Shown here: positions 10,560 through 64,000 of the stretch, piece by piece | How positions within the stretch are numbered: position 1 is the stretch's first letter | Layout of the letters: every line of letters begins with the position of its first letter | The notes under the pieces: generated by a model | Told to the model about the DNA's origin: nothing | The model's database searches: none | What the model saw: the letters and a program-made list of their open reading frames with translations, nothing else | Position numbers and translations under genes: made by a program | Assembly (NCBI GenBank): GCA_964640185.1 | Contig: CAZXGF010000007.1 | Span: forward strand, 43,452 to 107,451 | DNA length: 64,000 bases | Source: an uncultured Verrucomicrobiota bacterium | GTDB taxonomy: Bacteria > Auribacterota > JABMQX01 | Reading direction: 5' to 3'

Positions 10560-12629
10560 TTACGGCCGGCCTTTGGACACCGGCCAGGTGGCGCGAAACT
10601 CGTCCTGATAGAGGCCAATTTTATCAAAGCGAATCTTTTTGAACACGGGGATTTTCCGGTAAACGATGGAATCATCTTTCAGTTGGAAATTCATCTTCGC
10701 GGCGTCCACAAACCCCGGGTCCTCGTCGGTAATGAAATTATCTGCGACCTTGATATATTTCCTGTCCGGATCGTGCCAACTGCTCCGGTAGGACACATTG
10801 TTCACGACGACGTTGCCGAGCGGCGCCTGCGGGTGCTCCTCCAGAATGCGCGCCAGTTTCGGATACCTCATGCTCCAGGGCGGTTGCTTAATCCTGAACC
10901 GCTTGAGCGGCTCGTACATGGGCCCGCCAGGACGGAAGTGGTCCCAGGTCAACCCTCGCGTGTCGAGATGCACAGGCTGTTCGCACTCGATAAAGATGTT
11001 ATTCTGCACGATGTTGTCTCGCCCGCCCCCGATAAACGCCGACTCTCTCGTTTCATAAAAGACGTTGCCGAAAATCTCCGTCGAGCTGGCGCAGTCGTCA
11101 AGGTAAACCACCTTCGAGCCGAAGCCCGGCCTGAAGGGAATATGATGTATGAAGTTGTATCGCACCACGTTCCCCCGAAACGTCCAGTCGCGCCCAGTGT
11201 AGAGAACCCCCGCATCGCTCGACTCTAAGACAACATCGTGAATCTCGTTGAGCTCGATGAGGTGGTCGTTGCCGTCATACCCTATCGCCTGATGGGGGGC
11301 ATCGTGAATCAAGTTATGTGCGACCCGGTTGCCCACGCCCTGAATTTTCACCCCCGGGTACCAGGTTTTCAAGCACCTTGCGTAATGATGAATGTGATTA
11401 TTGATCGCACAAAGCCCCGCCGGAGCGAGCGTTTTCCGGTCCCCGCCCGACATGCGAATCCCCATCGCATCCAGATCGTAGATGTCGCAGCCCACAACGC
11501 CGTTCTCCTTTCCGCCGGCCAAGATGACCCCCTGACTCGCGTGGCGGATGACGCATCCGGCGATGCGGTTGTGCTGGCCCGCTCCTACCACTATTGCCAG
11601 CCCGCGCATCACTTCCAGAGTCAAACCCCGGATAGTGATGTACGATGTGTTATCCAGCGACACCATTGCTTCCTGCAACATTGAAGCCAGCAGCGGGCCT
11701 TTCCGAAAATCCTCCGGAGGCAGGAAGTACAAGATGCCTTTCTTGCGGTCGAGATACCACTCCCCGGGCTGATCTACCTCCTCCAGCACATTCACGGCGA
11801 AGAAACGCCGCCACGTCTGCAAATGAGGAGGGGCACGCCAGCCCAGAAGGATTTCCCGCCTCTCCCGGTCGAAGCCGACCGGATTCCAGCCGTCATATTG
11901 ATACTCCTGCTGCCAGTAGCCGCGAAGCCAAACCGCCTCCAGAGTGCCCCAGAGGTTCGGAGAATCTCCGCTATACTTGAACGCCAAAATCTTGCCCAGC
12001 TTGCCTTGCTTTGCTAATCGCGCCGCCGCATCCTCATCGAGGCCGACCGCCTTGGCGCTGCGAGCCAGCGCCCAACCTTCATTGGGCCAGCGAGCCAATT
12101 GCATTCGCTTCCCGTTGCGAAATAATTTCAGCCCACCCGCCAGGCTTCCCAGTTCGCCGTAATCTGTGATCCCATGCTCTCTCAGATTGACCTGGAGCAC
12201 TTTGCCGCGAACCCCTTTCTCCAGGCGTCTGAGAACGCCGGGGTCCTTCACCGGCTCAAACCACGACGCTGGCAGTTCTTCCCCGCCCACCAGGCGCACT
12301 GTTTCCTTGCCGTACGCACGATATGTTACCGGCGACTCTTTCGTCCCCGAATCCTCCTGCGTCAATTGAAACGTGTGCGTGCGATGGTACAGCCCGCCCC
12401 TGATCCAAACCGTAACCGGTTCCTTCAACGAGCCAGCCTCCTTTAGCCTGCGGATTGCATCGCGCGCGCCCTCAAGGCTCCGGAAAGGACTCTCTTCTGT
12501 CCCGGCGTTGGCATCACTTCCGTTCGTCGCGACATAGAGCTCGACGCCCCTGCCCATATCGACCGCTGACACCTGCAGGAAAACCACAAATGCAATGGCC
12601 GCCGTAAGAGTCACCTGCTTCGCTAGCAC
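10560..12629 (-). CDS. Right-handed parallel beta-helix (pectin-lyase fold, DUF1565-like) secreted protein, paralog A
   Basis: 689 aa with signal peptide. DUF1565-type N-terminus (LYVATNGSDANAGTEESPFRSLEGARDA). The C-terminal ~260 aa are near-identical to the paralog at 13575..15716. Confidence 0.75.
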   Translation of the reverse strand: MLAKQVTLTAAIAFVVFLQVSAVDMGRGVELYVATNGSDANAGTEESPFRSLEGARDAIRRLKEAGSLKEPVTVWIRGGLYHRTHTFQLTQEDSGTKESPVTYRAYGKETVRLVGGEELPASWFEPVKDPGVLRRLEKGVRGKVLQVNLREHGITDYGELGSLAGGLKLFRNGKRMQLARWPNEGWALARSAKAVGLDEDAAARLAKQGKLGKILAFKYSGDSPNLWGTLEAVWLRGYWQQEYQYDGWNPVGFDRERREILLGWRAPPHLQTWRRFFAVNVLEEVDQPGEWYLDRKKGILYFLPPEDFRKGPLLASMLQEAMVSLDNTSYITIRGLTLEVMRGLAIVVGAGQHNRIAGCVIRHASQGVILAGGKENGVVGCDIYDLDAMGIRMSGGDRKTLAPAGLCAINNHIHHYARCLKTWYPGVKIQGVGNRVAHNLIHDAPHQAIGYDGNDHLIELNEIHDVVLESSDAGVLYTGRDWTFRGNVVRYNFIHHIPFRPGFGSKVVYLDDCASSTEIFGNVFYETRESAFIGGGRDNIVQNNIFIECEQPVHLDTRGLTWDHFRPGGPMYEPLKRFRIKQPPWSMRYPKLARILEEHPQAPLGNVVVNNVSYRSSWHDPDRKYIKVADNFITDEDPGFVDAAKMNFQLKDDSIVYRKIPVFKKIRFDKIGLYQDEFRATWPVSKGRP
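10575..11360. repeat. ~0.78 kb near-identical direct repeat, copy 1 (3-prime part of beta-helix gene A); partner at ~13618..14400
   Basis: Direct reading: the DNA is almost base-for-base identical between the two tracts. Identity stops abruptly at ~11340/14380, although both genes continue as diverged paralogs. Confidence 0.85.
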
Positions 12630-19694: not shown

Positions 19695-19906
19695 CAAAAG
19701 AACAGCCGTCCCCCCATGTGGCATCCCGCTGGGGGCGGGACCCGTGGAAATCATGGGCAAGATGCCCATGCCACGGCAGGCGACCACGGAGTCTCTCTCA
19801 TTCTCCTCTCTGCGCCTCTGCCCCGCGTCTCGCGGGGTTACCCTCCTCCTCCCTTTTTCCCTCCGCCGCCTTGGCGGCGTATCGGCCTGAGACTGAGGCA
19901 TTACGG
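19695..19906 (+). repeat. R1 structured repeat, copy A
   Basis: Two hairpins (CCCGC-TGGGG-GCGGG and CATGGGCA-AGA-TGCCCATG), then a CT-rich tract ending GAGACTGAGGCATTAC. Homologous copies at 45040..45247 (-), 52198..52403 (+) and 56465..56640 (+). Confidence 0.8.
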
Positions 19907-27357: not shown

Positions 27358-27369
27358 GCTGAGACATAT

Positions 27370-27560
27370 ACCCTACCGTGCCCGTAGCACAACGAAGAAT
27401 CTTTGAGCCAACAGTACCGAATCGGGAGCCATGATTGGGTCGCTTTTGCAAGTACGCTCAGGAAAGCATACAGCATCCTTGAGGGCACCCACTTTGACAA
27501 ACAAGCGTTCAAAGATCTCGTTGATACGGCATTAAGGTAGGGTTTTTTTATGTCCTCGGG
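27370..27560 (+). ncRNA. Candidate 6S RNA (ssrS) locus - hypothesis from synteny and end-pairing
   Basis: A 223-nt non-coding gap after zapA, with rarA and a 5-formyl-THF cyclo-ligase next. 5-prime CCCTACC(GTGCC) can pair with 3-prime (GGCAT-taa-)GGTAGGG, and a T7 run follows. Confidence 0.25.
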
Positions 27561-44595: not shown

Positions 44596-45035
44596 AATAT
44601 TGATGTGGCTCCATTTCAGTGGCGGAACTGTCCTTGGACCTAACCCGTGCCGGAATCTCGACCCCATCCCAACACTCACCTTTACGAAGAGGAGAAAACG
44701 CCGGGCCATTCGAACTGGACTCGAGGAATCTTTCGAGTCGTGACGCACATATCTCGCCCTTTCAGGGCTCATCATTCTTGAACCGGGGCCCTTTCTCAGG
44801 GCGTTGCCCTGAGCTTTATTAAGTCTGCCCTTACAGGGCGACCCGAAAGCAATCTTCAGCCCTGAAAGGGCGCAATATTTTAGCCCAGGGCAACGCCCTG
44901 GGGAAATATCACGTGGTAAAATACAAAAGCCCTGAAGGGGCGTAATAGGCTCATCCCCAATACACGGTTCGCACCAGACACACGACAGCGGACCCGCGTG
45001 CCACTGAAATGGAGCCACACCCAATAATATGGATG
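44596..45035. repeat. Cluster of nested palindromes bounded by inverted copies of TGGCTCCATTTCAGTGG
   Basis: Inverted motif copies at 44603-44628 and 45003-45030. Inside: GCCCTTTCAGGGC / AGCCCTGAAAGGGC and the perfect palindromes CAGGGCGTTGCCCTG and CAGGGCAACGCCCTG. Confidence 0.6.
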
Positions 45036-45039
45036 AGAG

Positions 45040-45247
45040 TGTAACGCCTCCGTCTGGGGCGGGTACGGAGCTGCGGGCGAGAACAAGGGAAAAGGAGGGT
45101 AACGCAAAGGCGCAGAGTCGCAGAGAGGAGCATGAGAAGGACTCTGTCGTCGCCTGCCGTAGCATGGGCATCTTGCCCATGATTCCTCCACGGGTCCCCC
45201 GCCAGACGCGGGGGATGCCGCGTGGGCGACGGCTGTTCTTTTTCACC
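45040..45247 (-). repeat. R1 structured repeat, copy D (minus orientation, upstream of the minus-strand ABC operon)
   Basis: Hairpin 1 is extended (CCCCCGC-GTCTG-GCGGGGG). Hairpin 2 is CATGGGCAAGATGCCCATG. CT-rich tract follows. Confidence 0.8.
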
Positions 45248-52197: not shown

Positions 52198-52403
52198 GCA
52201 AAAAAAGCCGCTCCCCACGTGGCATCCCGCCGGAGGCGGGACCCGTGGGAATCATGGCCAAGATGGCCATGCCACGGCAGGCGAAGACGGGTTCCCTCTC
52301 ATCCTCCTCTGTGCGACTCTGCGGCTTTTGCGTTACCCTTCTCTTCTCTTTCTCCCTCCCCCGCCGTGGCAGGGCATCCGCCCAAGACTGAGGCCATACA
52401 CGC
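52198..52403 (+). repeat. R1 structured repeat, copy B
   Basis: Hairpin 1 is CCCGCC-GGA-GGCGGG. Hairpin 2 is CATGGCCAAGATGGCCATG, a double compensatory change versus copies A and D. It is preceded by a GCCCTTTCAGGGC motif. Confidence 0.8.
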
Positions 52404-56640: not shown

Positions 56641-56938
56641 CACCCACTTTTTTAGGGGTGTGGCTACATTTGAGTGGGTGATCTTGCCAAGTGCAACGCC
56701 ACCCCGCCATGGCGGGGCGGTCTCGAGGGCGTCTCGCCCTCGATTCTTTCTTATATCCTTTGCGTCTTCGCGTCTTTGCGAGAGGTCTCCCCCGTCCCAT
56801 TTCTCCCGCTAAGAAGCCAAGCGTCCTGTCCATCTTGTTTTTGACTTGCGGTTCTTCACTCCGAGTTCTGCGACGCGGAACAAACAAACCAAGGGCGAGT
56901 TCTCTACCACTTAAACGTAGCCGCACCCACTTTTTTAG

Positions 56939-56966
56939 TTGCGGTTTTTTTGGGACGGGCTATAAT
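56939..56966 (+). promoter_or_regulatory. Candidate promoter (TTGCGG-16-TATAAT) upstream of the DUF1559 gene
   Basis: Perfect -10 TATAAT at 56961-56966. The -35 is weaker. ~120 nt before ATG 57088. Confidence 0.4.
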
Positions 56967-57087
56967 GATTTTTGTACTTCAATATTCTCGGTGTCTGCCT
57001 GAAAAGGCGGCGCGACGAACAAGCACGATGGTGGGGGAATGGGTGGTGTTTTGTCTCCGCAAGCATCAGCATGAGGAGGGAGTATCC

Positions 57088-57840
57088 ATGAAAACCCGAC
57101 ATGTCAAGGGATTCACACTCATAGAACTTCTCGTTGTCATGGCGATTCTTTCAATATTGATGGCGCTTCTGCTGCCGGCTATCCAAACCGCCAAGGAAAA
57201 GGCGAGATGGAGTCGTTGTATCTCGAACATGCGTCAGCTCGGTCAGGCGATGATGATGTACGCCGGCGACAACGACGGGCACCTGCCGGCATCGGGCTCA
57301 GAACACAACCAGGGAAGATTCGATTACGTTTGCGGTGGAACGGGGAATTCGTTCCCGCAGACGGACCCTGCCTCCATGAAAAGGATCAAGATCGAAGAAG
57401 GGACACTATGGCCTTACATGACGACCCTCCCACGGTGCGGACCCTACGGAAGCGCCACGAAAGGAATGACGGAGAAATGGTACGCCTCACCGGACAAAAA
57501 CCCGTACCTCTGTCCTTCTTCGGGACCGGTGGGAAGAAAAGCCGGATTGAGCTATTCGATGAACGCTGCTCTGGATGACAGAACCAGCGGCGGCAGCGGT
57601 ATCGGAATCCAAATATCGCGAATCAGAACCCCAAGCAGGACTATCCTGTTAGTTGACGAGAGCGAGCTGAAGCTCAACGACGGGCGCTTTGTGCCCCCCG
57701 GCGAAGCCGCCCACCTGATGATCAAGCATAACGATGGCGGCAATCTCCTCTTCTGCGACGCGAGCGTGAAGTGGGTCGCACAGGAAACGTTCATGAAAAT
57801 GATACAATCGGACTCGGGCTGCTGGGACCCCCTCCGGTGA
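57088..57840 (+). CDS. DUF1559 / prepilin-type N-terminal cleavage-methylation domain protein (Planctomycetota-typical)
   Basis: [31 protein letters not shown], then the H-X9-DG-type C-terminus. A GAGGAGG SD lies 7 nt upstream. Confidence 0.9.
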
Positions 57841-58134
57841 GTTTATCCTGACTTTGCAGTTCTGGGTCTCTCCTTGGGCAAGCTCCTTTTCCCGCAAGCC
57901 CTTTCGCTGACCCGCCGCGAGCTTCCACAAACGCGCAGCCTCCGCCCTTGTGCCCGCGTGTCGCATTATCTCATTTTCAAGCGATAAAACGCGAGGAAGC
58001 GCTCGCCGCGCTCTGCTACCCGAGCGCCTGAATAAAAGTGCGGGGCCGCGCAAGAAGGAGGGAGAGGTTCCTTGGCGCCCGCCCAGGGAGCGCACATGCA
58101 TCAGCAGGCTGGAGAGAACGCGATACCGAATGTT

Positions 58135-58950
58135 TCACTCAATGACAATGCCAGCGTAGCCGACTACATAGCTGTAATCCCCGGTCACGTCGAAACTTGT
58201 GACGTAGGACACGAGGTGGGTTTTCTGCGCTCCGAGCAGTTTCGCCGCCGCTATCGCTGTGGCAACAGCAGCCCAACCACACATCGTCACGCGTTGTTCC
58301 CTGACCAGCCGCAGAAGCCTGCCTGCGTCGAGTTGGAGAATGGCATCAATCGCCATCATATCTTTCCGGCGTACCTCCGCCTGCCGGGCAGGGTTGGAGC
58401 GCTCAGTGTGCGACATGTCAGTGCTGGCGACGATGAGAATCTCTTTGCCGAGGTTCTTAGTCGTTTCGGCGATGCTTTTGCCGAGCGCCTCAAACTTCAC
58501 TTCGTCCGTGGAAACGATGCAAATCGGCACAATCTGCACGTTCGGATTTACGTACTGGAGAAACGGAACCTCCACTTCAAGAGAATGTTCGCTCTGATGT
58601 GCCGCGGCATCTTCCCTGAGGACCTCAAAGGCCTCCTTCAACGAAGTGGCGACCTCGGAGTCAATCTTCACCTCGCCGAAGGGCATCTCCCAGGCCCCCT
58701 CACTCATGATTGCGAAGTCGCTGCCGATTCCCCAGTGATTGGGGCCGAGTATGATAGCTGTCCCGGGAACCCTCACCTCGGAAAACGTCGCCCCCGCTGT
58801 CCGACCTGAGAAGTCATACCCCGCATGGGGGGTGACCACCGCAATAGCTTTCCTGTCCCCTTTGACGGGTACAAACTCTTCGATTTGCCTTCGAAGAGCA
58901 GCTTCGTTCATCGGGTAAAATCTGCCACAAGCCGCCGGTTTTCTTTTCAT
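58135..58950 (-). CDS. Memo1-like protein (AmmeMemoRadiSam system protein B family), orphan
   Basis: CGRFYP, TPHAGYDFSG, GPNHWG, EHSLEVEVPFL. No AMMECR1 or radical-SAM partner is adjacent. Confidence 0.7.
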   Translation of the reverse strand: MKRKPAACGRFYPMNEAALRRQIEEFVPVKGDRKAIAVVTPHAGYDFSGRTAGATFSEVRVPGTAIILGPNHWGIGSDFAIMSEGAWEMPFGEVKIDSEVATSLKEAFEVLREDAAAHQSEHSLEVEVPFLQYVNPNVQIVPICIVSTDEVKFEALGKSIAETTKNLGKEILIVASTDMSHTERSNPARQAEVRRKDMMAIDAILQLDAGRLLRLVREQRVTMCGWAAVATAIAAAKLLGAQKTHLVSYVTSFDVTGDYSYVVGYAGIVIE

Positions 58951-59180
58951 GGCGAGTGCCCTCCCCTCCGTCGTTTGGCTGCGAGCTGGCGGCAGCGAGC
59001 CAATCCTCACCTTCCAAGCGTCGTCCGTTTGCGAGCGCCGGCATACGGCAAGGAGATGGGAAGTTGTCCATCCCGGTCCCTGTCCCGGACAGGATGCGCC
59101 GCTTACTCACAGTCCCCACTACCTTTTTCAGTTGACAACTGGTGCCTATGTTTGTATTGATTTACTCCGGCTTCATCGAA

Positions 59181-59252
59181 GGCGGCATAGCCAAGTGGTT
59201 AAGGCAGAGGATTGCAAATCCTTTATCCTCGGTTCGAATCCGGGTGCCGCCT
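59181..59252 (+). tRNA. tRNA-Cys (anticodon GCA)
   Basis: Acceptor GGCGGCA/TGCCGCC, anticodon stem GAGGA/TCCTT with loop TTGCAAA, T-arm CTCGG-TTCGAAT-CCGGG. CCA not encoded. Confidence 0.9.
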
Positions 59253-59399
59253 CTCTCCCTTTCCCACTGGCACCACGCCGGTTGCGAAGCGACCCTGTGA
59301 AGCTCTGTCGAGGTCGCCAACTGTCAGTGGCCTTATGTTTGACGAGTTCTCTCGGATTTTTCCCCGCCCTTCGCGCTCCCACTCTACCATAAGGCTCTG

Positions 59400-59603
59400 T
59401 CAATGGATACCGCAAAACGTGTGCTCCTTCAGAAAGTCTTCGATGTCCCTCTCCTTGACCAGCACCCTTGCGGCCCGCTCGCCGCTGCCCGGATACCTTA
59501 TCACCGGCAATTCCCCCCGCCGGACCATGCGCAGAATGCCGTTGCGGGAAAGTCTGAGCGCCTTTCCGGCCTCTGCCACTGTCAATAATCGGGGGATCGC
59601 CAT
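59400..59603 (-). CDS. Excisionase-family HTH DNA-binding protein (AlpA/Xis-like)
   Basis: LLTVAEAGKALRLSRNGILRMVRRGELPVIRYPG matches the excisionase-family HTH pattern. First gene after the tRNA-Cys 3-prime end. Confidence 0.75.
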   Translation of the reverse strand: MAIPRLLTVAEAGKALRLSRNGILRMVRRGELPVIRYPGSGERAARVLVKERDIEDFLKEHTFCGIH

Positions 59604-59609
59604 GTTAAA

Positions 59610-59795
59610 TTAAGCCTCGTTTTCACCCTTCAAAACGCCGACAAGCTCCGTGTCCTCTGTCGCCATCGCTGCCCAGAACGCCTCCTGTCCTTTCGCCGTC
59701 GGTGTCACTGCTGCAAGTTCTTCTCGGGTCCGGTGGCAGATCTCCTCAAGCATCGCCACAACCCTTGCCTCAGTCTCAGAATCGCCTTTGCTCAC
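59610..59795 (-). CDS. Small acidic hypothetical protein upstream of the Xis-like gene
   Basis: 61-aa ORF with a 4-nt gap to the Xis-like gene. No recognisable domain. Confidence 0.3.
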   Translation of the reverse strand: MSKGDSETEARVVAMLEEICHRTREELAAVTPTAKGQEAFWAAMATEDTELVGVLKGENEA

Positions 59796-60026
59796 CGTCT
59801 CTCCCTATGCGGGCGGGGGCCGGAGAGGTGATGACGGAAACAGAGACCCGGCCCCCGTAGCTGAAATGTAAAGGCAAGCCCCCGAAGGGGAGGCACTGAC
59901 ATGCTTCCCGGACAGCCAGGCCAAAGCCGCTGCCAGGCGGACTCTCGCAAGGCACGCTCGACAGAATTGCCATCCCGTCTTTGCGCGCCCCAGGTTGTCC
60001 TGTCGGGAGCTTGCCATCGTTTTCAC

Positions 60027-61751
60027 TCACCGGTTTTTGAGGTCGTCTCCCAGCGTGTCTACTCGTCGCGTAGTTCCCAAAAGCATATTGGCCATTAGAG
60101 TCATCGCCCCCTCTATAGAAAGTTGCTGACGTTCCACCGCCATCAGAAGTTTGTTAACCGTGGACGCCTGCTTTGGGTGAAGCAATTTGGCTGCCCAAGC
60201 GCGCAACATCAGGTTCGCGGGCTCGACTGTCGCAAGTTCAGGGACACCCGCCGTTCCGGGGAACATCGGCCTCGCCGGGGTTATCCCCGCCATCTGCAAT
60301 CGGGCTTGTGCCTTCACGCCCTCTCGCCGTTCTCGTATAGATTCCCGATAGGCTGTTCGCTCCGCCTGCCGTCGTGCCCTGAAATCACCAGGGGCCTCGC
60401 CAGGCATCATTCGCAGGCTTGGAAGCACCGCCTCACGGATAGGCCGAGTGAGCTTCTCTGCAATGGACTCTGCCTTTTGAAATGCCTTGCCAACAGCCTG
60501 GGCTGCACCGAACAACGAATTCGCGGCATTTACTCCCCACTGAAAAGCCGTTTTGAACTTGTCCGCGACGGAGTCCTGCTTCTCGCCGGCCTTGCCCAAG
60601 TCCTCTATGGGCTTCCGAGACGAGTCTATTGCCAGTTGCCAAAGCCGCGCGCCCTCGCCCGTCTCCTTGAACGCCGAGAGCATTTCAGGCGTCTTCCATT
60701 CCTCCTCAGTAACAGGAGGTCTGCCTACCGCACCCATGTGGGGTACATATCTCGTCTGCGGTTTGCGCTTTGCCTGCGCTTTCCCCCAAGTTTCAAACTC
60801 TTCCCAAAACTTCTGATAAGCCTCGGTACCGACCTTGACCTCCTTCACTGCCAGGCCAGCCCACCCCGACAGCGCCCGAAACACCGGACTTGCGCCTATC
60901 TCCTCGACCTTCTCGGCAACCATGCTCAAGGCATTGACCACTGACTGAGCCCATTCTTGCGCCTTGCCGGACTCCATCCACTTGCCAAGCTTCTCGGCCC
61001 ACTCCTGCATTTTCGGAATGAGCACCTTAGCCAGCACGCCCCACACACCCATCATGCCGTACTTCAGCTTTGTCATGACATCATCATAGGCTTTCGACAT
61101 CGCGGCGAGCTTGCCCATGCCCGGCGACAGCCGTTCCACTTCGTCACCCATCAGTTGGAAATACTCGCGGCCCAGTTTCAGAACAGGAATCAGGTCTTTT
61201 TGTCGAGTGCCCAGAAGACTCAAAACAAGAGCCATCTTTTGCTGCTCAGGAATGGCCTTGTTCGCCATGTAATCTACCAATCGCATGAAGACCTCGGCGA
61301 GGTCTGTAAGCCCTCGTTTCATTTCCTCATCGGTATAACCCAGCTTCTTGAATTCGCGCGTGTAGGTCGCTAACCCGTACTTGGCTTGCTCCATGTTTTT
61401 TGCAAGCAGCGGGAAGGACTTAGCAAGCAGCTCGAAGCTTCCGTGCTCCTGCTCGACCGCGTACCGGAGCCGGTGAAGGTCCCTGACCGTTATGCCCGTG
61501 ACCTTCGACAGCTTGTGCAGCTCGAGCGCATAGGCCATCGTGGACTTGACACCCTTCACCGCGATAGCCGTCCCCACAGCCGCCATCGCCGCCCCCGCCA
61601 TCGCTCCGAATTTGGCGAAGGCTTTGCCATAACGCATGACATTCTGGGACATGGTGCGCATGCGCTTGTCCGCCTTGTCTATCCCTCTCATAAAATTTGT
61701 GATCTTTGAGTTCAGGCCGATCCACGCCTCACCTATGTTAGCTTTCGCCAT
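60027..61751 (-). CDS. Phage tail tape-measure-like protein (alpha-helical, Ala/Gly-rich hydrophobic segments)
   Basis: 574 aa. A strong SD (GGGAGGTGA) precedes the ATG. AMAGAAMAAVGTAIAV segments and helical repeats are typical of tape-measure core regions. Assignment by composition and pattern only. Confidence 0.4.
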   Translation of the reverse strand: MAKANIGEAWIGLNSKITNFMRGIDKADKRMRTMSQNVMRYGKAFAKFGAMAGAAMAAVGTAIAVKGVKSTMAYALELHKLSKVTGITVRDLHRLRYAVEQEHGSFELLAKSFPLLAKNMEQAKYGLATYTREFKKLGYTDEEMKRGLTDLAEVFMRLVDYMANKAIPEQQKMALVLSLLGTRQKDLIPVLKLGREYFQLMGDEVERLSPGMGKLAAMSKAYDDVMTKLKYGMMGVWGVLAKVLIPKMQEWAEKLGKWMESGKAQEWAQSVVNALSMVAEKVEEIGASPVFRALSGWAGLAVKEVKVGTEAYQKFWEEFETWGKAQAKRKPQTRYVPHMGAVGRPPVTEEEWKTPEMLSAFKETGEGARLWQLAIDSSRKPIEDLGKAGEKQDSVADKFKTAFQWGVNAANSLFGAAQAVGKAFQKAESIAEKLTRPIREAVLPSLRMMPGEAPGDFRARRQAERTAYRESIRERREGVKAQARLQMAGITPARPMFPGTAGVPELATVEPANLMLRAWAAKLLHPKQASTVNKLLMAVERQQLSIEGAMTLMANMLLGTTRRVDTLGDDLKNR

Positions 61752-61918
61752 TTCTCACCTCCCGTGCCTTCCCTTGAGCACGCGAACAGTGGGCAGTAAG
61801 GACGGATAGTCTGAGGACCTTTCCTCAAGCGCCTCGACCCGCCGCTCCAACGGTTCAAGTGCCTTCTCGGCCGCTTGTGTTGCCCTGCTTTCTATGCGCT
61901 TTTTCTCCGCTTGATCAA

Positions 61919-62218
61919 TCACCTCGCACCTCCTTCAGTTCCCTGTTCGACTTGCCCTTCGCCCGGATTCATCCTCACGTATTCGACGATAACCTTCAGC
62001 CCCTCGCCGAGGTCGGCCTTGAGCTCTCGTGGAAGCAGTTGCCCCAGAAGCCTCAAGAAGTCGCGTGGCGACTCTTTCCCGATGTTGACGAGGTCTTCTT
62101 TCCCGCCAAGCTCATCAAACGCCTCAAGGATGGTCTGCTTGAGCAGCGTGTACTTATTTTGGCTCCCCTTCGGGCGTCCGGCATTGCCCGGTTTGAACTG
62201 TGTATCCTGGCTCGGCAT
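61919..62218 (-). CDS. DUF5681-like phage protein (GNAGRPKG motif)
   Basis: FKPGNAGRPKGSQNK...LLPRELKADL. Paralogous to 62239..62610. Confidence 0.5.
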   Translation of the reverse strand: MPSQDTQFKPGNAGRPKGSQNKYTLLKQTILEAFDELGGKEDLVNIGKESPRDFLRLLGQLLPRELKADLGEGLKVIVEYVRMNPGEGQVEQGTEGGAR

Positions 62219-62238
62219 GTCCCTAATCTGTCCCTTCT

Positions 62239-62610
62239 TTACGGGTTCGCCGCCTCACGCAATCTGTTTGCGATGCGCTCCCGTGTTTCACTATCTGTAA
62301 CCTCCTGCAAGACTATGATTTCAAACTGCTTGAACATTGTCCGGGCATCCTCTATCGTCAAGTCCGCCCTGATTTCTCGTGGCAAAAGACTGACAATCGC
62401 CCGCAGCAATCCCACCGGGTCCTTTTTCCCCGCCTTCTCGATCAACCCTTTGACGAAGCCCTCAAGCCCTCCGCCGCCTTCGGCCTCGTCACCAAGCGCC
62501 TCCAGGCTCTTGAGAATCGCGTCCCGCAAAGCCCAGACTTTAGTTTTCTGCCCTGGCAACCGTCCTCTCGGATTGCCGGACTCGCCCTTTTTCCACAATC
62601 GCTTCGCCAT
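62239..62610 (-). CDS. DUF5681-like phage protein, paralog (GNPRGRLPG motif)
   Basis: Start at internal ATG 62610 (MAKRLWKKGESGNPRGRLPGQK) with a CAGGAG SD. Shares LLPREIRADL with the neighbour. Confidence 0.5.
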   Translation of the reverse strand: MAKRLWKKGESGNPRGRLPGQKTKVWALRDAILKSLEALGDEAEGGGGLEGFVKGLIEKAGKKDPVGLLRAIVSLLPREIRADLTIEDARTMFKQFEIIVLQEVTDSETRERIANRLREAANP

Positions 62611-62827
62611 TTCAAAACTCCTGGTACGTCCTGTTATAAGCACATGCTTTCTTACCCCATACCCGAAATAGGAGAAGGCGAGTCCCCGGGGGCAACGAGC
62701 TGGCCTTCGTTGCAGAGAATGAGACGAGGGCCGGCGACCAGCACAGACTCTCGCAAGGCACGCAGAATGAAACTGCCGCTCCTTACTGCACGCCCCACAT
62801 CCTCCATTCGGGGACTCGCGCAAATAC

Positions 62828-63406
62828 TCATTTTGTTACAATCTCCTTCGCCCCCACGAGGGGACGCACACTCTCCGGCAAATCGCATAGCCGTCGAACC
62901 TCCGTTTCCTTGAGCCGTTTGAGCAGCATCTCTCGCGTGCCGAATAGGGGCAGATACTCTGTTTCGCATAGCTCTCGTAAGCTGCGTGTGGGCAGCCGTC
63001 CGAGTTGGCTTTTCGACGGGTGCATTCTCGTTGTCTGGGCCCGAGCAAAACGTAAGGCCAAAAGTGCCTCCTTGAAATGGCGCACTTTGGGTGTTTTCGC
63101 CAACGGTCCGAAGCCAGCACCCCAAAAGTCCAGTTGACGAGCCTCACCGTTGAACGTGTAGAAAACCCGTGCCTGTGCGCGACTCAGGCGTGCGAAAACA
63201 TCCAACCGGTACTCGGTCCGCAACGGCTCTTTTTCTTTTGCGGGCTGCCCTTCCTTCTTGGCCTTCAGGGCTGCCCAACCCTGAGCCTCGGCGACACGGC
63301 GGACTTGCGCATAGGTGACGCCACGCTTCTCACTCAAGGCGCGCATGGAGACGCCGCCCGCGAGGTATTCTGTCCTGATGGACGTCCAGTCAATTTCCAT
63401 TTTCAT
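62828..63406 (-). CDS. Terminase-small-subunit-like HTH protein
   Basis: N-terminal IDWTSIRTEYLAGGVSMRALSEKRGVTYAQVRRVAEAQGW resembles the HTH of phage TerS/Terminase_5-type proteins. Start taken at internal M (MKMEIDW). Confidence 0.4.
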   Translation of the reverse strand: MKMEIDWTSIRTEYLAGGVSMRALSEKRGVTYAQVRRVAEAQGWAALKAKKEGQPAKEKEPLRTEYRLDVFARLSRAQARVFYTFNGEARQLDFWGAGFGPLAKTPKVRHFKEALLALRFARAQTTRMHPSKSQLGRLPTRSLRELCETEYLPLFGTREMLLKRLKETEVRRLCDLPESVRPLVGAKEIVTK

Positions 63407-63710
63407 CAGTAGGATCCTCCGTGTTCTCCTTCCCAAGTTCCTTCCGCGCGAGCTTCAGGGCCGCCTCGAGCTGCGAAATATTGTCATCAGTCGCCTCCAG
63501 GCAAATGCCCTTTTTTGTCGGCAGAAGCATGCCACTGCCCGGATCCCAGTGCCGCCGCATGTCGAGTAGGCGCTTTCCCTTATACGTCCGCAGGCTCACC
63601 CGCGTCCGCCAAACATGAGTGCTGCCCCACTCCGCGAGCACCGTCCCGTTGTCTCCGGTCGGCTTGTCGCCCGGGCCGGGGGCTGTCTTCGGTTTGTCTG
63701 TATCAGTCAT
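63390..63710 (-). CDS. PC4/YdbC-like ssDNA-binding protein
   Basis: RVSLRTYKGKRLLDMRRHWDPGSGMLLPTKKGICL matches the bacterial/phage PC4-like domain pattern. Confidence 0.45.
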   Translation of the reverse strand: MTDTDKPKTAPGPGDKPTGDNGTVLAEWGSTHVWRTRVSLRTYKGKRLLDMRRHWDPGSGMLLPTKKGICLEATDDNISQLEAALKLARKELGKENTEDPTDENGN

Positions 63711-63827
63711 CCCATTCCTGCCTTTCGCTAACGTGAAAATCAGGGCCTGTTTTATTTCCCCCTTTGGGGTAGAATTGCGCTAACGCGGAGAAGAGGAGGG
63801 GAGGGGAGCCTGGTAGAATTATAGAAG

Positions 63828-63953
63828 TGGGTCGGTTCCACCCCTTATAGCAGCTCCCCAAAATGCCGTTATAGGGGTAGGTTCCACCCCTTATAGGCTG
63901 CTCCATAGGGGTAGGTTCCACCCCTTGATAAGGGTCGGTTCCGACCGTTAGGG
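63828..63953. repeat. Four direct 21-23 bp repeats (GGGT[CA]GGTTCCACCCCTTATAG), iteron or arm-site-like
   Basis: Copies at 63828-63850, 63874-63897, 63908-63931 and a degenerate one at 63932-63953, separated by TATAGG-containing spacers. Lies in non-coding sequence at the distal edge of the phage-like island. Confidence 0.7.
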
Positions 63954-64000
63954 TCTGTTTTAATAGTGGTTCATTTCCGGCCACCATCGCGCTCCTTTCG

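Follow-up and report, generated by a model that had tools for sequence, protein, structure and literature searches.

A complete 9.6-kb integrative element in a tRNA-Cys gene encodes small-terminase and tape-measure homologues and resembles phage satellites in gene plan

We analyzed a 64,000-nucleotide stretch of DNA (the window) from an uncultivated, apparently PVC-type bacterium. Near its right-hand end, a tRNA-Cys(GCA) gene is followed by a run of genes that all lie on the minus strand (Table 1). An earlier note had read this region as a satellite-like or remnant phage-derived island; every gene that it listed is present at its place, though the list omitted a 55-aa ORF. The note also proposed looking past position 64000 for an integrase and a second att copy, and we found both on a JGI metagenome contig, L010, which is 99.68% identical to window positions 56802-64000 and adds 7.75 kb past the window. 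A perfect copy of the 47-nt att core lies at L010 2884-2930 (equivalent to window positions 68822-68868) with a weak pseudo-tRNA score (31.5 bits); beside it, ~4.8 kb past the window end, is a tyrosine integrase gene, and beyond it are host-like ORFs. The two att copies are 9,614 bp apart. They bound a complete integrative element of 9.61 kb, which we call E1 and whose target is the 3' end of tRNA-Cys; the window shows the right-hand half of E1, and this end of the tRNA adjoins the excisionase (Xis) end of the element.

Table 1. Features of E1 in the window and on the extending contig L010.
Feature	Position	Strand	Evidence or remark
tRNA-Cys(GCA), intact	59181..59253	+	ARAGORN; Rfam tRNA 66.9 bits
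att core, 47-nt perfect direct repeat AGGATTGCAAATCCTTTATCCTCGGTTCGAATCCGGGTGCCGCCTCT	59208..59254	.	repeats tRNA-Cys 3' part
HTH_17 (MerR/AlpA-type) excisionase-like, 67 aa	59400..59603	-	Pfam HTH_17 E=1.9e-10, above cut-off
acidic ORF, 61 aa	59610..59795	-	ORF list
terminator-like hairpin	59878..59894	-	consensus scan only; such sites no commoner than chance
tape-measure protein (TMP) homologue, 574 aa	60027..61751	-	PHROG profile matches
coiled-coil-like ORF, 55 aa	61755..61922	-	ORF list
DUF5681b, TerS homologue, 99 aa	61919..62218	-	DUF5681 weakly, 16.3 bits vs cut-off 27.5
DUF5681a, paralogous TerS homologue, 123 aa, GNPRGRLPG motif	62239..62610	-	Pfam DUF5681 28.1 bits, just above 27.5 cut-off
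HTH DNA-binding protein, 192 aa	62828..63406	-	small-terminase PHROGs, N-terminal ~50 residues only
PC4-like ssDNA-binding protein, 106 aa	63390..63710	-	Pfam PC4 8.8e-11, 41.6 bits vs cut-off 25
four iteron-like ~22-nt repeats, GGTMGGTTCCACC core	63825..63949	.	repeat search vs shuffles
predicted winged-helix gene, 108-121 aa (3' end only in window)	63960..64000	-	full gene L010 7427-7792
Mini-A topoisomerase-like gene, 315 aa	L010 5116-6063		outside window
RHH genes (ribbon-helix-helix regulators)	L010		outside window
tyrosine integrase	L010 3077-4219		outside window

From its far end, E1 encodes the integrase, the ribbon-helix-helix regulators, a Spo11/Top6A-like Mini-A protein with 5Y-CAP and Toprim domains, small ORFs and a small winged-helix protein, followed by the four iterons. 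Between the iterons and the tRNA come the PC4-like gene, the HTH protein gene, the two DUF5681 paralogues, the 55-aa ORF and the TMP homologue, and then the acidic ORF, the HTH_17 excisionase gene and att. As the earlier note had reported, genes for an integrase, a capsid, a portal or a large terminase are absent from the window part of E1. Pfam and PHROG scans, which covered the larger ORFs among the far-end and window genes, detected none for capsid, portal, large terminase, tail tube or lysis in the 9.6 kb, and large-terminase queries matched nothing in the window or the available host loci. The lack of capsid, portal, large terminase and lysis genes excludes an ordinary prophage and supports the satellite-like reading. 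The idea that a complete prophage or a GTA-like cluster continued just past the window with capsid, portal and large terminase lost its plausibility once the part beyond the window edge came into view; L010 covers all of E1, with the far att copy 4.8 kb past the window, and we now give this idea practically no credence.

E1 is present in all contigs that span the neighboring host gene and the tRNA, shorter contigs stopping at or before the att core, and no presence/absence polymorphism was observed among contigs reaching across the site. Neither an excised circle of E1, nor an empty attB, nor a packaged copy was seen. The GC content of E1 (57.6%) equals that of the host (57.8%), which fits long residence and also a domesticated island.

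The same metagenomes contain two related elements: E2 (11.2 kb), which probably shares a parent contig with E1, lies in a tRNA-Arg gene between 43-nt perfect repeats, and E3 (7.3 kb) lies in a tRNA-Leu gene between 89-nt repeats that are 99% identical. Both follow the plan of E1 but carry a D5-type primase-helicase replicon (PriCT/D5_N). All 10 genes common to E1 and E2 are intact and free of frameshifts, with dN/dS of 0.18-0.70. The TMP, PC4 and HTH genes are missing from E3 and hence are not core to the family.

These comparisons bear on whether E1 is the leftover end of a prophage that lost its structural genes, which the earlier note had ranked as an equal alternative, alongside a GTA-like fragment. 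Such a remnant would account for phage-derived genes without their usual partners and for the fixation of E1 in all contigs seen. However, the intact att sites of E2 and E3, two further compact elements of the same plan in other tRNA genes, together with dN/dS below 1 in every gene common to E1 and E2, make decay unlikely. Perfect att repeats also enclose only 9.6 kb in E1, its integrase and excisionase are intact, and its ordered integration, regulation, replication and packaging layout with an origin of its own is unlike what random deletion leaves behind. We consider a decayed remnant very improbable.

The 574-aa protein has no Pfam match, and its 19 PHROG matches, mostly to tape-measure families (best 8e-24), cover residues ~20-300, bearing out its description as tape-measure-like. 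This N-terminal part of ~300 aa is TMP-like and includes hydrophobic segments; the C-terminal half is without a match. Its relatives appear to be tape-measure proteins of real tail modules: the distant homologues P0003, P0005 and P0006 occupy a TMP-like position within phage structural-gene clusters, and one cluster with a TMP homologue (L007) also contains a capsid gene. We found no relatives in IMG/VR viral contigs. The E1 and E2 copies are equal in length and 81% identical (dN/dS 0.31), and the 55-aa ORF directly precedes the TMP gene in E1 as in E2, with 85% amino acid identity between the copies.

The two DUF5681-like paralogues noted earlier are both recognizable, and we assign them, from synteny and a profile match of moderate strength, as predicted small-terminase (TerS) homologues, because DUF5681 relatives lie directly upstream of large terminase (TerL) genes in phages. 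This adjacency occurs in two metagenome contexts and in at least 19 of 27 scanned IMG/VR loci; phage Pam1 has the annotated order TerS-TerL-portal, and TerS and TerL are likewise adjacent in Rhizobium phage RHph_N2. An alignment of the island DUF5681 proteins matches Pam1 TerS with 85% probability (hhalign, E 6e-6), and structure predictions bearing on the assignment (pLDDT 53 and 67) are too weak to establish a fold. DUF5681b matches phrog_11043 (1.1e-8) and is the only one of the genes common to E1, E2 and E3 with phage-packaging homology; its E3 homologue is 61% identical, and its dN/dS between E1 and E2 is 0.18. The gene of its nearest non-island relative (39% identical, locus L031) is followed directly by a fragment of a terminase large subunit.

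The earlier note had instead called the HTH protein TerS-like, which fits the N-terminal DNA-binding domain only. The best TerS PHROG match of the 192-aa protein (8e-10) covers residues 2-63 only, and that of a longer, 202-aa version of the ORF (6.9e-10) covers the same region (residues 12-73); the middle region is without assignment, and the C-terminus carries a SAP-like motif. Among its remote homologues, 75 of 76 match phrog_1206 terS, in a search where nearly all alignments are confined to the N-terminal ~50-90 residues, and the AF2 model is confident at residues 1-50 only. The predicted likeness to small terminases is thus limited to the DNA-binding domain, and the DUF5681 pair appear to be the better candidates.

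E1 also appears to have its own replicon. The repeat cluster that the earlier note had seen is real: each of the four iterons is an internal dyad, GGTnGG-TT-CCnACC, at spacings of 46, 34 and 23 nt, and shuffled sequences are expected to contain none. The cluster is a probable replication origin, with binding sites for the small winged-helix protein encoded upstream. The first gene downstream encodes the PC4-like ssDNA binder, also called correctly before, and E2 has a homologue at the equal position. E2 and E3 carry at the equal place a different iteron set, CTGACGGG, in two direct copies and three inverted ones, of which two are exact and the third is partial. This set tracks the primase-helicase rather than the genes downstream; the iteron type switches together with the replicase module across elements. 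At the other end, the HTH_17 protein also matches phrog_66 excisionase/regulator (1.2e-6), in agreement with its earlier call, and as the final gene before att it has counterparts at the equal position in E2 and E3.

E1 has an integrase, an origin, and TerS-like and TMP genes but lacks those for capsid, portal and large terminase, so its most likely way of spreading is to hijack a helper phage. We infer a satellite lifestyle and put at roughly 60% the probability that E1 is a phage satellite of PICI-like or tycheposon-like kind that, like PLEs and EPIPs, brings its own tape measure. When a helper tailed phage infects or is induced, the integrase and HTH_17 protein would excise E1, which would copy itself from the iteron origin with its own initiator and the PC4-like single-strand binder. 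The small-terminase homologues, perhaps aided by the HTH protein, would steer the helper large terminase onto satellite DNA, so that E1 enters capsids made by the helper, and the E1 tape-measure protein would be incorporated into helper-derived tails, as experimentally shown for Vibrio PLEs. Counting against this reading, no helper phage was identified, and we recognized in E1 no gene for capsid-size redirection or known interference functions.

Alternatively, E1 may be an unpackaged, self-replicating defence island or integrated plasmid-like replicon, whose TerS homologues, TerS-type HTH protein and TMP act as decoys or dominant-negative inhibitors of phage packaging and tail assembly. Its own replicon with int/xis, its occurrence in every site-spanning contig and its host-like GC would suit such an island, as would the fact that no helper phage was identified and no packaged form seen. 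Tail-assembly interference is a documented antiviral strategy (for example, PLE11 Rta), and two reports describe it as encoded by defence islands, prophages and PICIs (PMC11364771, PMC10884400). However, PADLOC defence models give only weak Toprim and ZorC-like matches, and a full-length 574-aa TMP that has kept the same length in E1 and E2, along with two TerS paralogues that evolve under purifying selection, resembles working virion and packaging parts more than inhibitors. This alternative, which we regard as unlikely, overlaps the satellite model, since known satellites pair interference with transfer.

The likeness of E1 to PICIs and tycheposons is one of gene plan and does not show sequence membership in a described family. 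Like PICIs, SaPIs and tycheposons, E1 is ~10 kb long and has a site-specific tyrosine integrase, att repeats, an excisionase/AlpA-type HTH protein, its own predicted replicon with iterons beside the initiator gene, and a small-terminase homologue without large terminase, capsid or lysis genes. PICI-like tycheposons carry a tRNA-specific tyrosine recombinase, xis, pri/hel/top genes and terS, and, as in E1-E3, sister elements occupy different tRNAs with their own integrases and swapped pri/hel/top replication modules (bioRxiv 10.1101/2020.12.28.424599). E1 differs in its two DUF5681-type TerS paralogues plus TerS-HTH protein, its tape-measure gene, its host, and the lack of an evident Stl-like divergent master repressor.

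The 582-aa TMP encoded by Vibrio cholerae PLEs takes the place of the helper TMP in chimeric tails (bioRxiv 10.1101/2025.01.29.635557). Compared by description, PLEs and E1 share a satellite-encoded TMP without tail tube or sheath genes; unlike PLEs, E1 has no recognizable tail assembly chaperone or baseplate hub, and its integrase is a tyrosine recombinase aimed at a tRNA gene. The EPIPs of Mycolicibacterium, satellites of 11 kb that carry TerS and TMP (PMC12822802), resemble E1 in gene content (small terminase, HTH protein, integrase, TMP, most virion genes absent). They differ in a serine integrase and reported head-tail adaptor, stopper and scaffold genes, and were isolated as particles. 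P4-like satellites share with E1 an integrase beside a tRNA and an AlpA/HTH_17-type protein, and with E2 and E3 a PriCT/D5_N primase-helicase of P4 alpha type, in place of which E1 has the Mini-A/winged-helix replicon; PHROG scans gave no match to psu, sid, delta or other capsid-redirection annotations.

Mini-A proteins are characterized by RxxYY, a Toprim E and DxDxxG, and a C-terminal xWELDAL box (PMC7671362), to which RQVYY, the Toprim E with DLDPSG, and AVELDAL correspond in the E1 protein. As in the family, the protein has ~300 aa, no neighboring B subunit and a location within a virus-related integrated element; what sets it apart is its place in a satellite-like element that lacks a capsid, at the position where the sisters have a primase-helicase.

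The hairpin between the TMP gene and the acidic/Xis pair may split two transcription units. At the acidic-ORF position, E3 likewise encodes an acidic protein, with an MLEEI motif in common by eye; the E1 protein has no BLAST match to this 67-aa E3 protein or to the 93-aa E2 protein. The E3 protein is 83% identical over 23 aa to the N-terminus of the E2 ORF.

We recovered the far half of E1, the island inserted in tRNA-Cys(GCA), through a metagenome scan whose query was an alignment of the 574-aa protein with its 81%-identical relative. The scan identified a JGI contig (Ga0315551_10000594, here L010) that matches window positions 56802-64000 at 99.68% identity and continues 7.75 kb further; coordinates convert as window = 71752 minus L010. 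The 3' part of the tRNA (window 59208-59254) has a perfect 47-nt copy at L010 2884-2930, 9,614 bp away, and just within this far att copy, which by score is a weak pseudo-tRNA, sits a tyrosine integrase of 380 aa. L010 thus supplies both items that the earlier note had proposed to look for past position 64000, an integrase and a second copy of the tRNA-Cys 3' end. The perfect repeat, with an integrase at its far copy, indicates that E1 is a complete att-bounded element of 9.61 kb, within the ~7-15 kb of the att-bounded, integrase-ended islands of PICI-like satellites. Its GC content (57.6%) is close to that of the host (57.8%). A search for an empty tRNA-Cys site, made through the adjoining Memo-like host gene, found none, and every contig reaching past the tRNA carries the island. 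Short Logan contigs end on the att core or slightly short of it, with two breaks inside it; a 47-nt repeat is expected to have this effect.

The ORF, Pfam, PHROG and repeat scans of the window bore out the gene list of the earlier note together with its non-coding repeat cluster; all listed genes were found, and one 55-aa ORF had been left out of the order. In our ORF reading of the window, all credible genes to the right of tRNA-Cys are on the minus strand. A 94-aa minus-strand ORF (63703-63987), annotated as a gene in one JGI record of this sequence (L012), is probably spurious, because it overlies the repeat (iteron) cluster and has no homologues and no family match. A sigma-70 promoter scan detected no promoter, terminator-like sites did not exceed chance frequency, and NCBIfam and PADLOC scans gave nothing relevant.

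Features of the E1 island that lie inside the window
Feature	Position	Strand	Evidence
tRNA-Cys(GCA)	59181-59253	+	Rfam, 66.9 bits
HTH_17 protein, 67 aa	59400-59603	-	Pfam HTH_17, E 1.9e-10
Acidic ORF, 61 aa	59610-59795	-	ORF call
TMP-like protein, 574 aa	60027-61751	-	PHROG; no Pfam match
55-aa ORF	61755-61922	-	missing from the earlier list
DUF5681b, 99 aa	61919-62218	-	weak DUF5681, 16.3 bits
DUF5681a, 123 aa	62239-62610	-	DUF5681, 28.1 bits vs cut-off 27.5
HTH protein, 192 aa	62828-63406	-	small-terminase PHROGs, 8e-10, over the first ~50 residues only
PC4-like protein, 106 aa	63390-63710	-	PC4, 8.8e-11
Repeat cluster, four 22-nt units	63825-63949		GGTnGG-TT-CCnACC dyad in each unit; chance expectation none

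In the far half, the integrase is followed by a 70-aa ribbon-helix-helix (RHH)-like protein and a pair of small ORFs. Next come the gene for a 315-aa protein and ORFs of 81, 150 and 77 aa. The last gene stops at window ~63960, directly before the iterons, and its product of 108-121 aa reads like a winged-helix protein. Pfam and PHROG scans of the larger ORFs and searches with large-terminase (TerL) queries detected neither a TerL, portal or capsid gene nor one for a tail tube or lysis in E1. This absence excludes an ordinary prophage and a gene transfer agent: a complete temperate prophage would hold TerL, portal and major capsid genes between its att sites, and a GTA would hold them in its cluster. 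We consider it very likely that E1 is complete as a mobile element and has no virion genes.

Two sister elements occupy other tRNA genes. E2 (contigs L001-L005) is an 11.2-kb element in tRNA-Arg(ACG), bounded by perfect 43-nt att repeats, and bears the 81%-identical homologue of the tape-measure-like (TMP) protein. Its genes run integrase, RHH protein, divergent 381-aa HTH_17 protein, 710-aa PriCT_1/D5_N/DUF5906 primase-helicase, PC4, HTH protein, 56-aa ORF, TMP homologue, two DUF5681 paralogues, 93-aa ORF and HTH_17. E3 (L019 3615-11042) is 7.34 kb long and lies in tRNA-Leu(CAA) between att repeats of 89 nt with 99% identity to each other. Its integrase, RHH protein and primase-helicase are 66%, 82% and 83% identical to those of E2, and its DUF5681b homologue is 73% identical to that of E2 and 61% to that of E1. 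E3 also has a small acidic protein in the same position and an HTH_17 ORF, and is without the TMP, PC4 and HTH genes. The excisionase-like HTH_17 ORF of E3, at 10617-10817, is absent from the source annotation. Comparison of E1 with E2 bears on whether E1 could be a decaying remnant: all ten genes common to the two are intact, with dN/dS of 0.18-0.70, which argues against decay. The TMP homologue is 574 aa long in both elements, with dN/dS of 0.31.

The two DUF5681 proteins may have a packaging function. DUF5681a is a borderline pass at the 27.5-bit gathering threshold of Pfam DUF5681 (PF18932) and DUF5681b falls below it, but the two align with each other at 27% identity and have GNxGRP...LLPRE motifs in common. 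Relatives of these proteins lie directly upstream of a Terminase_6N large terminase in two metagenome contexts, and the closest DUF5681b relative outside the islands (39% identical) is followed downstream by a Terminase_3 match (8.5e-5). In Pseudanabaena phage Pam1, a DUF5681 relative annotated as small terminase (TerS) precedes TerL and portal genes; another in Rhizobium phage RHph_N2 is likewise directly upstream of the large terminase, and in IMG/VR at least 19 of 27 scanned loci show DUF5681-TerL adjacency. An hhalign comparison of the island DUF5681 alignment with Pam1 TerS gave 85% probability (E 6e-6). From the TerL-adjacent relatives and the Pam1 profile match we read the pair as small-terminase homologues, with small-terminase function predicted. 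By homology and synteny, E1 would then carry the combination that marks packaging hijack, a small terminase in an element without TerL. Searching cultured phages by tblastn with the two window proteins gave no match; the phage link emerged solely by way of intermediate homologues. The AlphaFold2 model of DUF5681a is all-helical with a pLDDT of 67, low confidence for reading the small-terminase fold, an oligomeric ring that binds DNA by its N-terminus and TerL by its C-terminus, and a BFVD fold search returned nothing significant. A DUF5681 protein has been found by mass spectrometry in purified virions of Salmonella phage STGO-35-1 (PMC8954984), which one would not expect of a small terminase; carry-over or a second role may account for it. 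Independently of how E1 lives, the family, now listed as being of unknown function, gains a testable small-terminase assignment.

The HTH protein of 192 aa bears a TerS-type DNA-binding domain and differs in its remainder. Searched in full with HMMER against 1.84 billion representatives, it gave 106 matches, nearly all confined to the N-terminal ~50-90 residues, apart from the E2 orthologue and a pair of long proteins with repeats; 75 of 76 scanned relatives match phrog_1206 terS. Its AlphaFold2 model has a pLDDT of 53, with the HTH alone confident, and a scan of genome contigs with the protein gave no match. The C-terminal third (window 62828-63000) contains LRELCETEYLPLFGTREMLLKRL, which is SAP/HeH-like by eye and has no Pfam match; in the full HMMER search, LRELCETEYLPLFGTREMLLKRL matches several repeats in the two long proteins P0020 (1462 aa) and P0117 (747 aa).

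The 574-aa protein has 19 PHROG matches, mostly to tape-measure families (best 8e-24) and covering residues ~20-300. Distant homologues are 27-34% identical across the N-terminal ~45%, and three of them (P0003, P0005 and P0006) belong to phage structural-gene clusters, where they follow small ORFs in a TMP-like position; one cluster holding a distant homologue also has a capsid gene. A tail tape measure is identified by TMP-family homology and by homologues placed behind the chaperone genes of tail modules; on its PHROG matches and the TMP-like position of its relatives we count the protein as a TMP homologue. Pfam PF10145 is matched by the distant homologues P0008-P0011 only and not by the 574-aa protein itself, and a scan of IMG/VR viral contigs with the TMP homologue found no relative. 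PDB sequence searches with this protein, the HTH protein, DUF5681a and the 315-aa protein gave no meaningful match. All 23 differences between the window and L010 fall within a 170-bp patch of the TMP gene (60480-60648), the contigs being otherwise identical; in that patch the window matches the paralogous E2 copy at 100% identity, owing either to gene conversion between E1 and E2 or to chimeric assembly of one record.

The replication modules of the three elements differ. E2 and E3 have a common CTGACGGG iteron arrangement directly after the stop codon of a D5/PriCT primase-helicase, followed by different downstream genes; E1, which does not encode this replicase, has another replication module and other repeats at the equivalent place. 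The iterons thus follow the replication module through all three elements, which supports their being an origin, and we regard the E1 cluster as a putative origin. The 315-aa protein (L010 5116-6063, equivalent to window ~65689-66636 and hence beyond the window) matches phrog_6247 'DNA topoisomerase' at 7.6e-65. Its translation reads RQVYY, Toprim EKD and DLDPSG, and AVELDAL near the C-terminus. Mini-A proteins are defined by an RxxY/FY catalytic tyrosine, Toprim E and DxDxxG, a C-terminal xWELDAL, a length of ~300 aa and no B subunit (PMC7671362), and on these motifs the protein is predicted to be a Mini-A type IIB topoisomerase-like protein. We infer that the E1 initiator is the winged-helix protein, Mini-A or both. 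Mini-A fills the slot that holds a D5-type primase-helicase in the sister elements, and this interchangeability is a concrete lead on its role whatever the lifestyle of E1.

An excisable, self-replicating element with homologues of packaging and tail-length proteins, and without the machinery on which they act, is most simply explained as a satellite, and we put the probability that E1 lives as a helper-dependent phage satellite at roughly 60%. In such a life cycle, the integrase and the HTH_17 protein would excise E1, which would replicate from the iterons with the PC4-like protein as single-strand binder. The DUF5681 proteins would then redirect the helper's TerL, E1 DNA would be packaged in helper capsids, and E1's own TMP would go into helper tails, a step with direct precedent in PLEs. 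No helper phage was identified, and no excised circle or packaged copy was seen. Possibly E1 is instead a non-packaged island whose phage-derived proteins, the same packaging and tail homologues, act as decoys against phages.

The satellite reading draws on several known systems. Every PLE has a gene for an alternative TMP (582 aa), and chimeric tails selectively incorporate this protein; the study that showed this notes that tmp genes are predicted in further putative satellites as well (bioRxiv 10.1101/2025.01.29.635557). EPIPs are 11-kb satellites carrying TerS and TMP (PMC12822802). PICI-like tycheposons, with a tRNA-specific tyrosine recombinase, xis, exchangeable pri/hel/top genes and terS (bioRxiv 10.1101/2020.12.28.424599), come closest to E1 in overall plan. 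Classical PICIs have no tail genes, whereas E1, like PLEs and EPIPs, has one tail homologue, the TMP. PICIs also place a divergent master-repressor/activator pair beside int; in E1 the genes are co-oriented, with RHH proteins after int, whereas E2 does have its divergent HTH_17 protein. PLEs pair their TMP with a tail assembly chaperone, some adding a baseplate hub, but in E1 we recognised neither chaperone nor hub. P4-like satellites are marked by psu/sid/delta capsid-redirection genes, a cos site and an alpha primase-helicase; in the PHROG scans no match carried an annotation for psu, sid, delta or other capsid redirection, and a primase-helicase occurs in E2 and E3 only. We would class E1 as a phage satellite or PICI-like element, distinguished by its DUF5681-type TerS paralogues, private TMP, Mini-A replicon variant and unusual host group.

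If so, E1 represents an additional lineage of phage satellites, from uncultivated and little-studied hosts, and is an independent case of a satellite with its own tape-measure gene. Satellite-borne TMPs were described first in PLEs (early 2025) and next in EPIPs, and a further case would support tail manipulation as a general satellite strategy. A bolder and rather improbable proposal is that E1-E3 form an undescribed satellite lineage of uncultivated PVC-type hosts, with a trio of TerS-derived DNA binders, a private TMP and an exchangeable replicon in which the Spo11/Top6A-like Mini-A replaces the primase-helicase in E1. Were it true, Mini-A would gain its first functional context, in initiation or resolution of satellite replication, and satellite tail manipulation would reach well beyond Vibrio and Mycolicibacterium.

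The surrounding host DNA yielded several further observations. N_methyl/DUF1559-type proteins adjoin the island, and the window has a match to Acido-Lenti-1 RNA; these two features suggest that the host is of PVC type. A 6S RNA gene lies at window 27367-27547 (Rfam 52.4 bits, gathering score 46.4). The Acido-Lenti-1 match, on the minus strand at window 44858-44902 (49.8 bits), is spanned by a ~165-200-nt host repeat (window 44797-45022) with further copies at L001 1119-1316 and 13070-13229; these copies lie on both sides of the E2 insertion site in opposite orientation and score below the Rfam threshold. Near E2, the last 20 nt of tRNA-Pro(TGG) recur exactly 181 nt downstream (L001 16220-16239 and 16401-16420), perhaps the trace of a further integration or excision. 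E1 and E2 probably reside together on the parent contig of the window, since database entries for proteins of both elements, among them one identical to the 574-aa protein (P0001), come from an NCBI contig of one length, 151,588 bp. A dispersed host sequence of ~48 nt occurs at window 19721-19768, 52222-52269 and 45165-45205 and at L001 15862-15909, in copies 90-96% identical, and its presence in both the window and the E2-bearing contig fits an origin of the two in the same or a very close genome.
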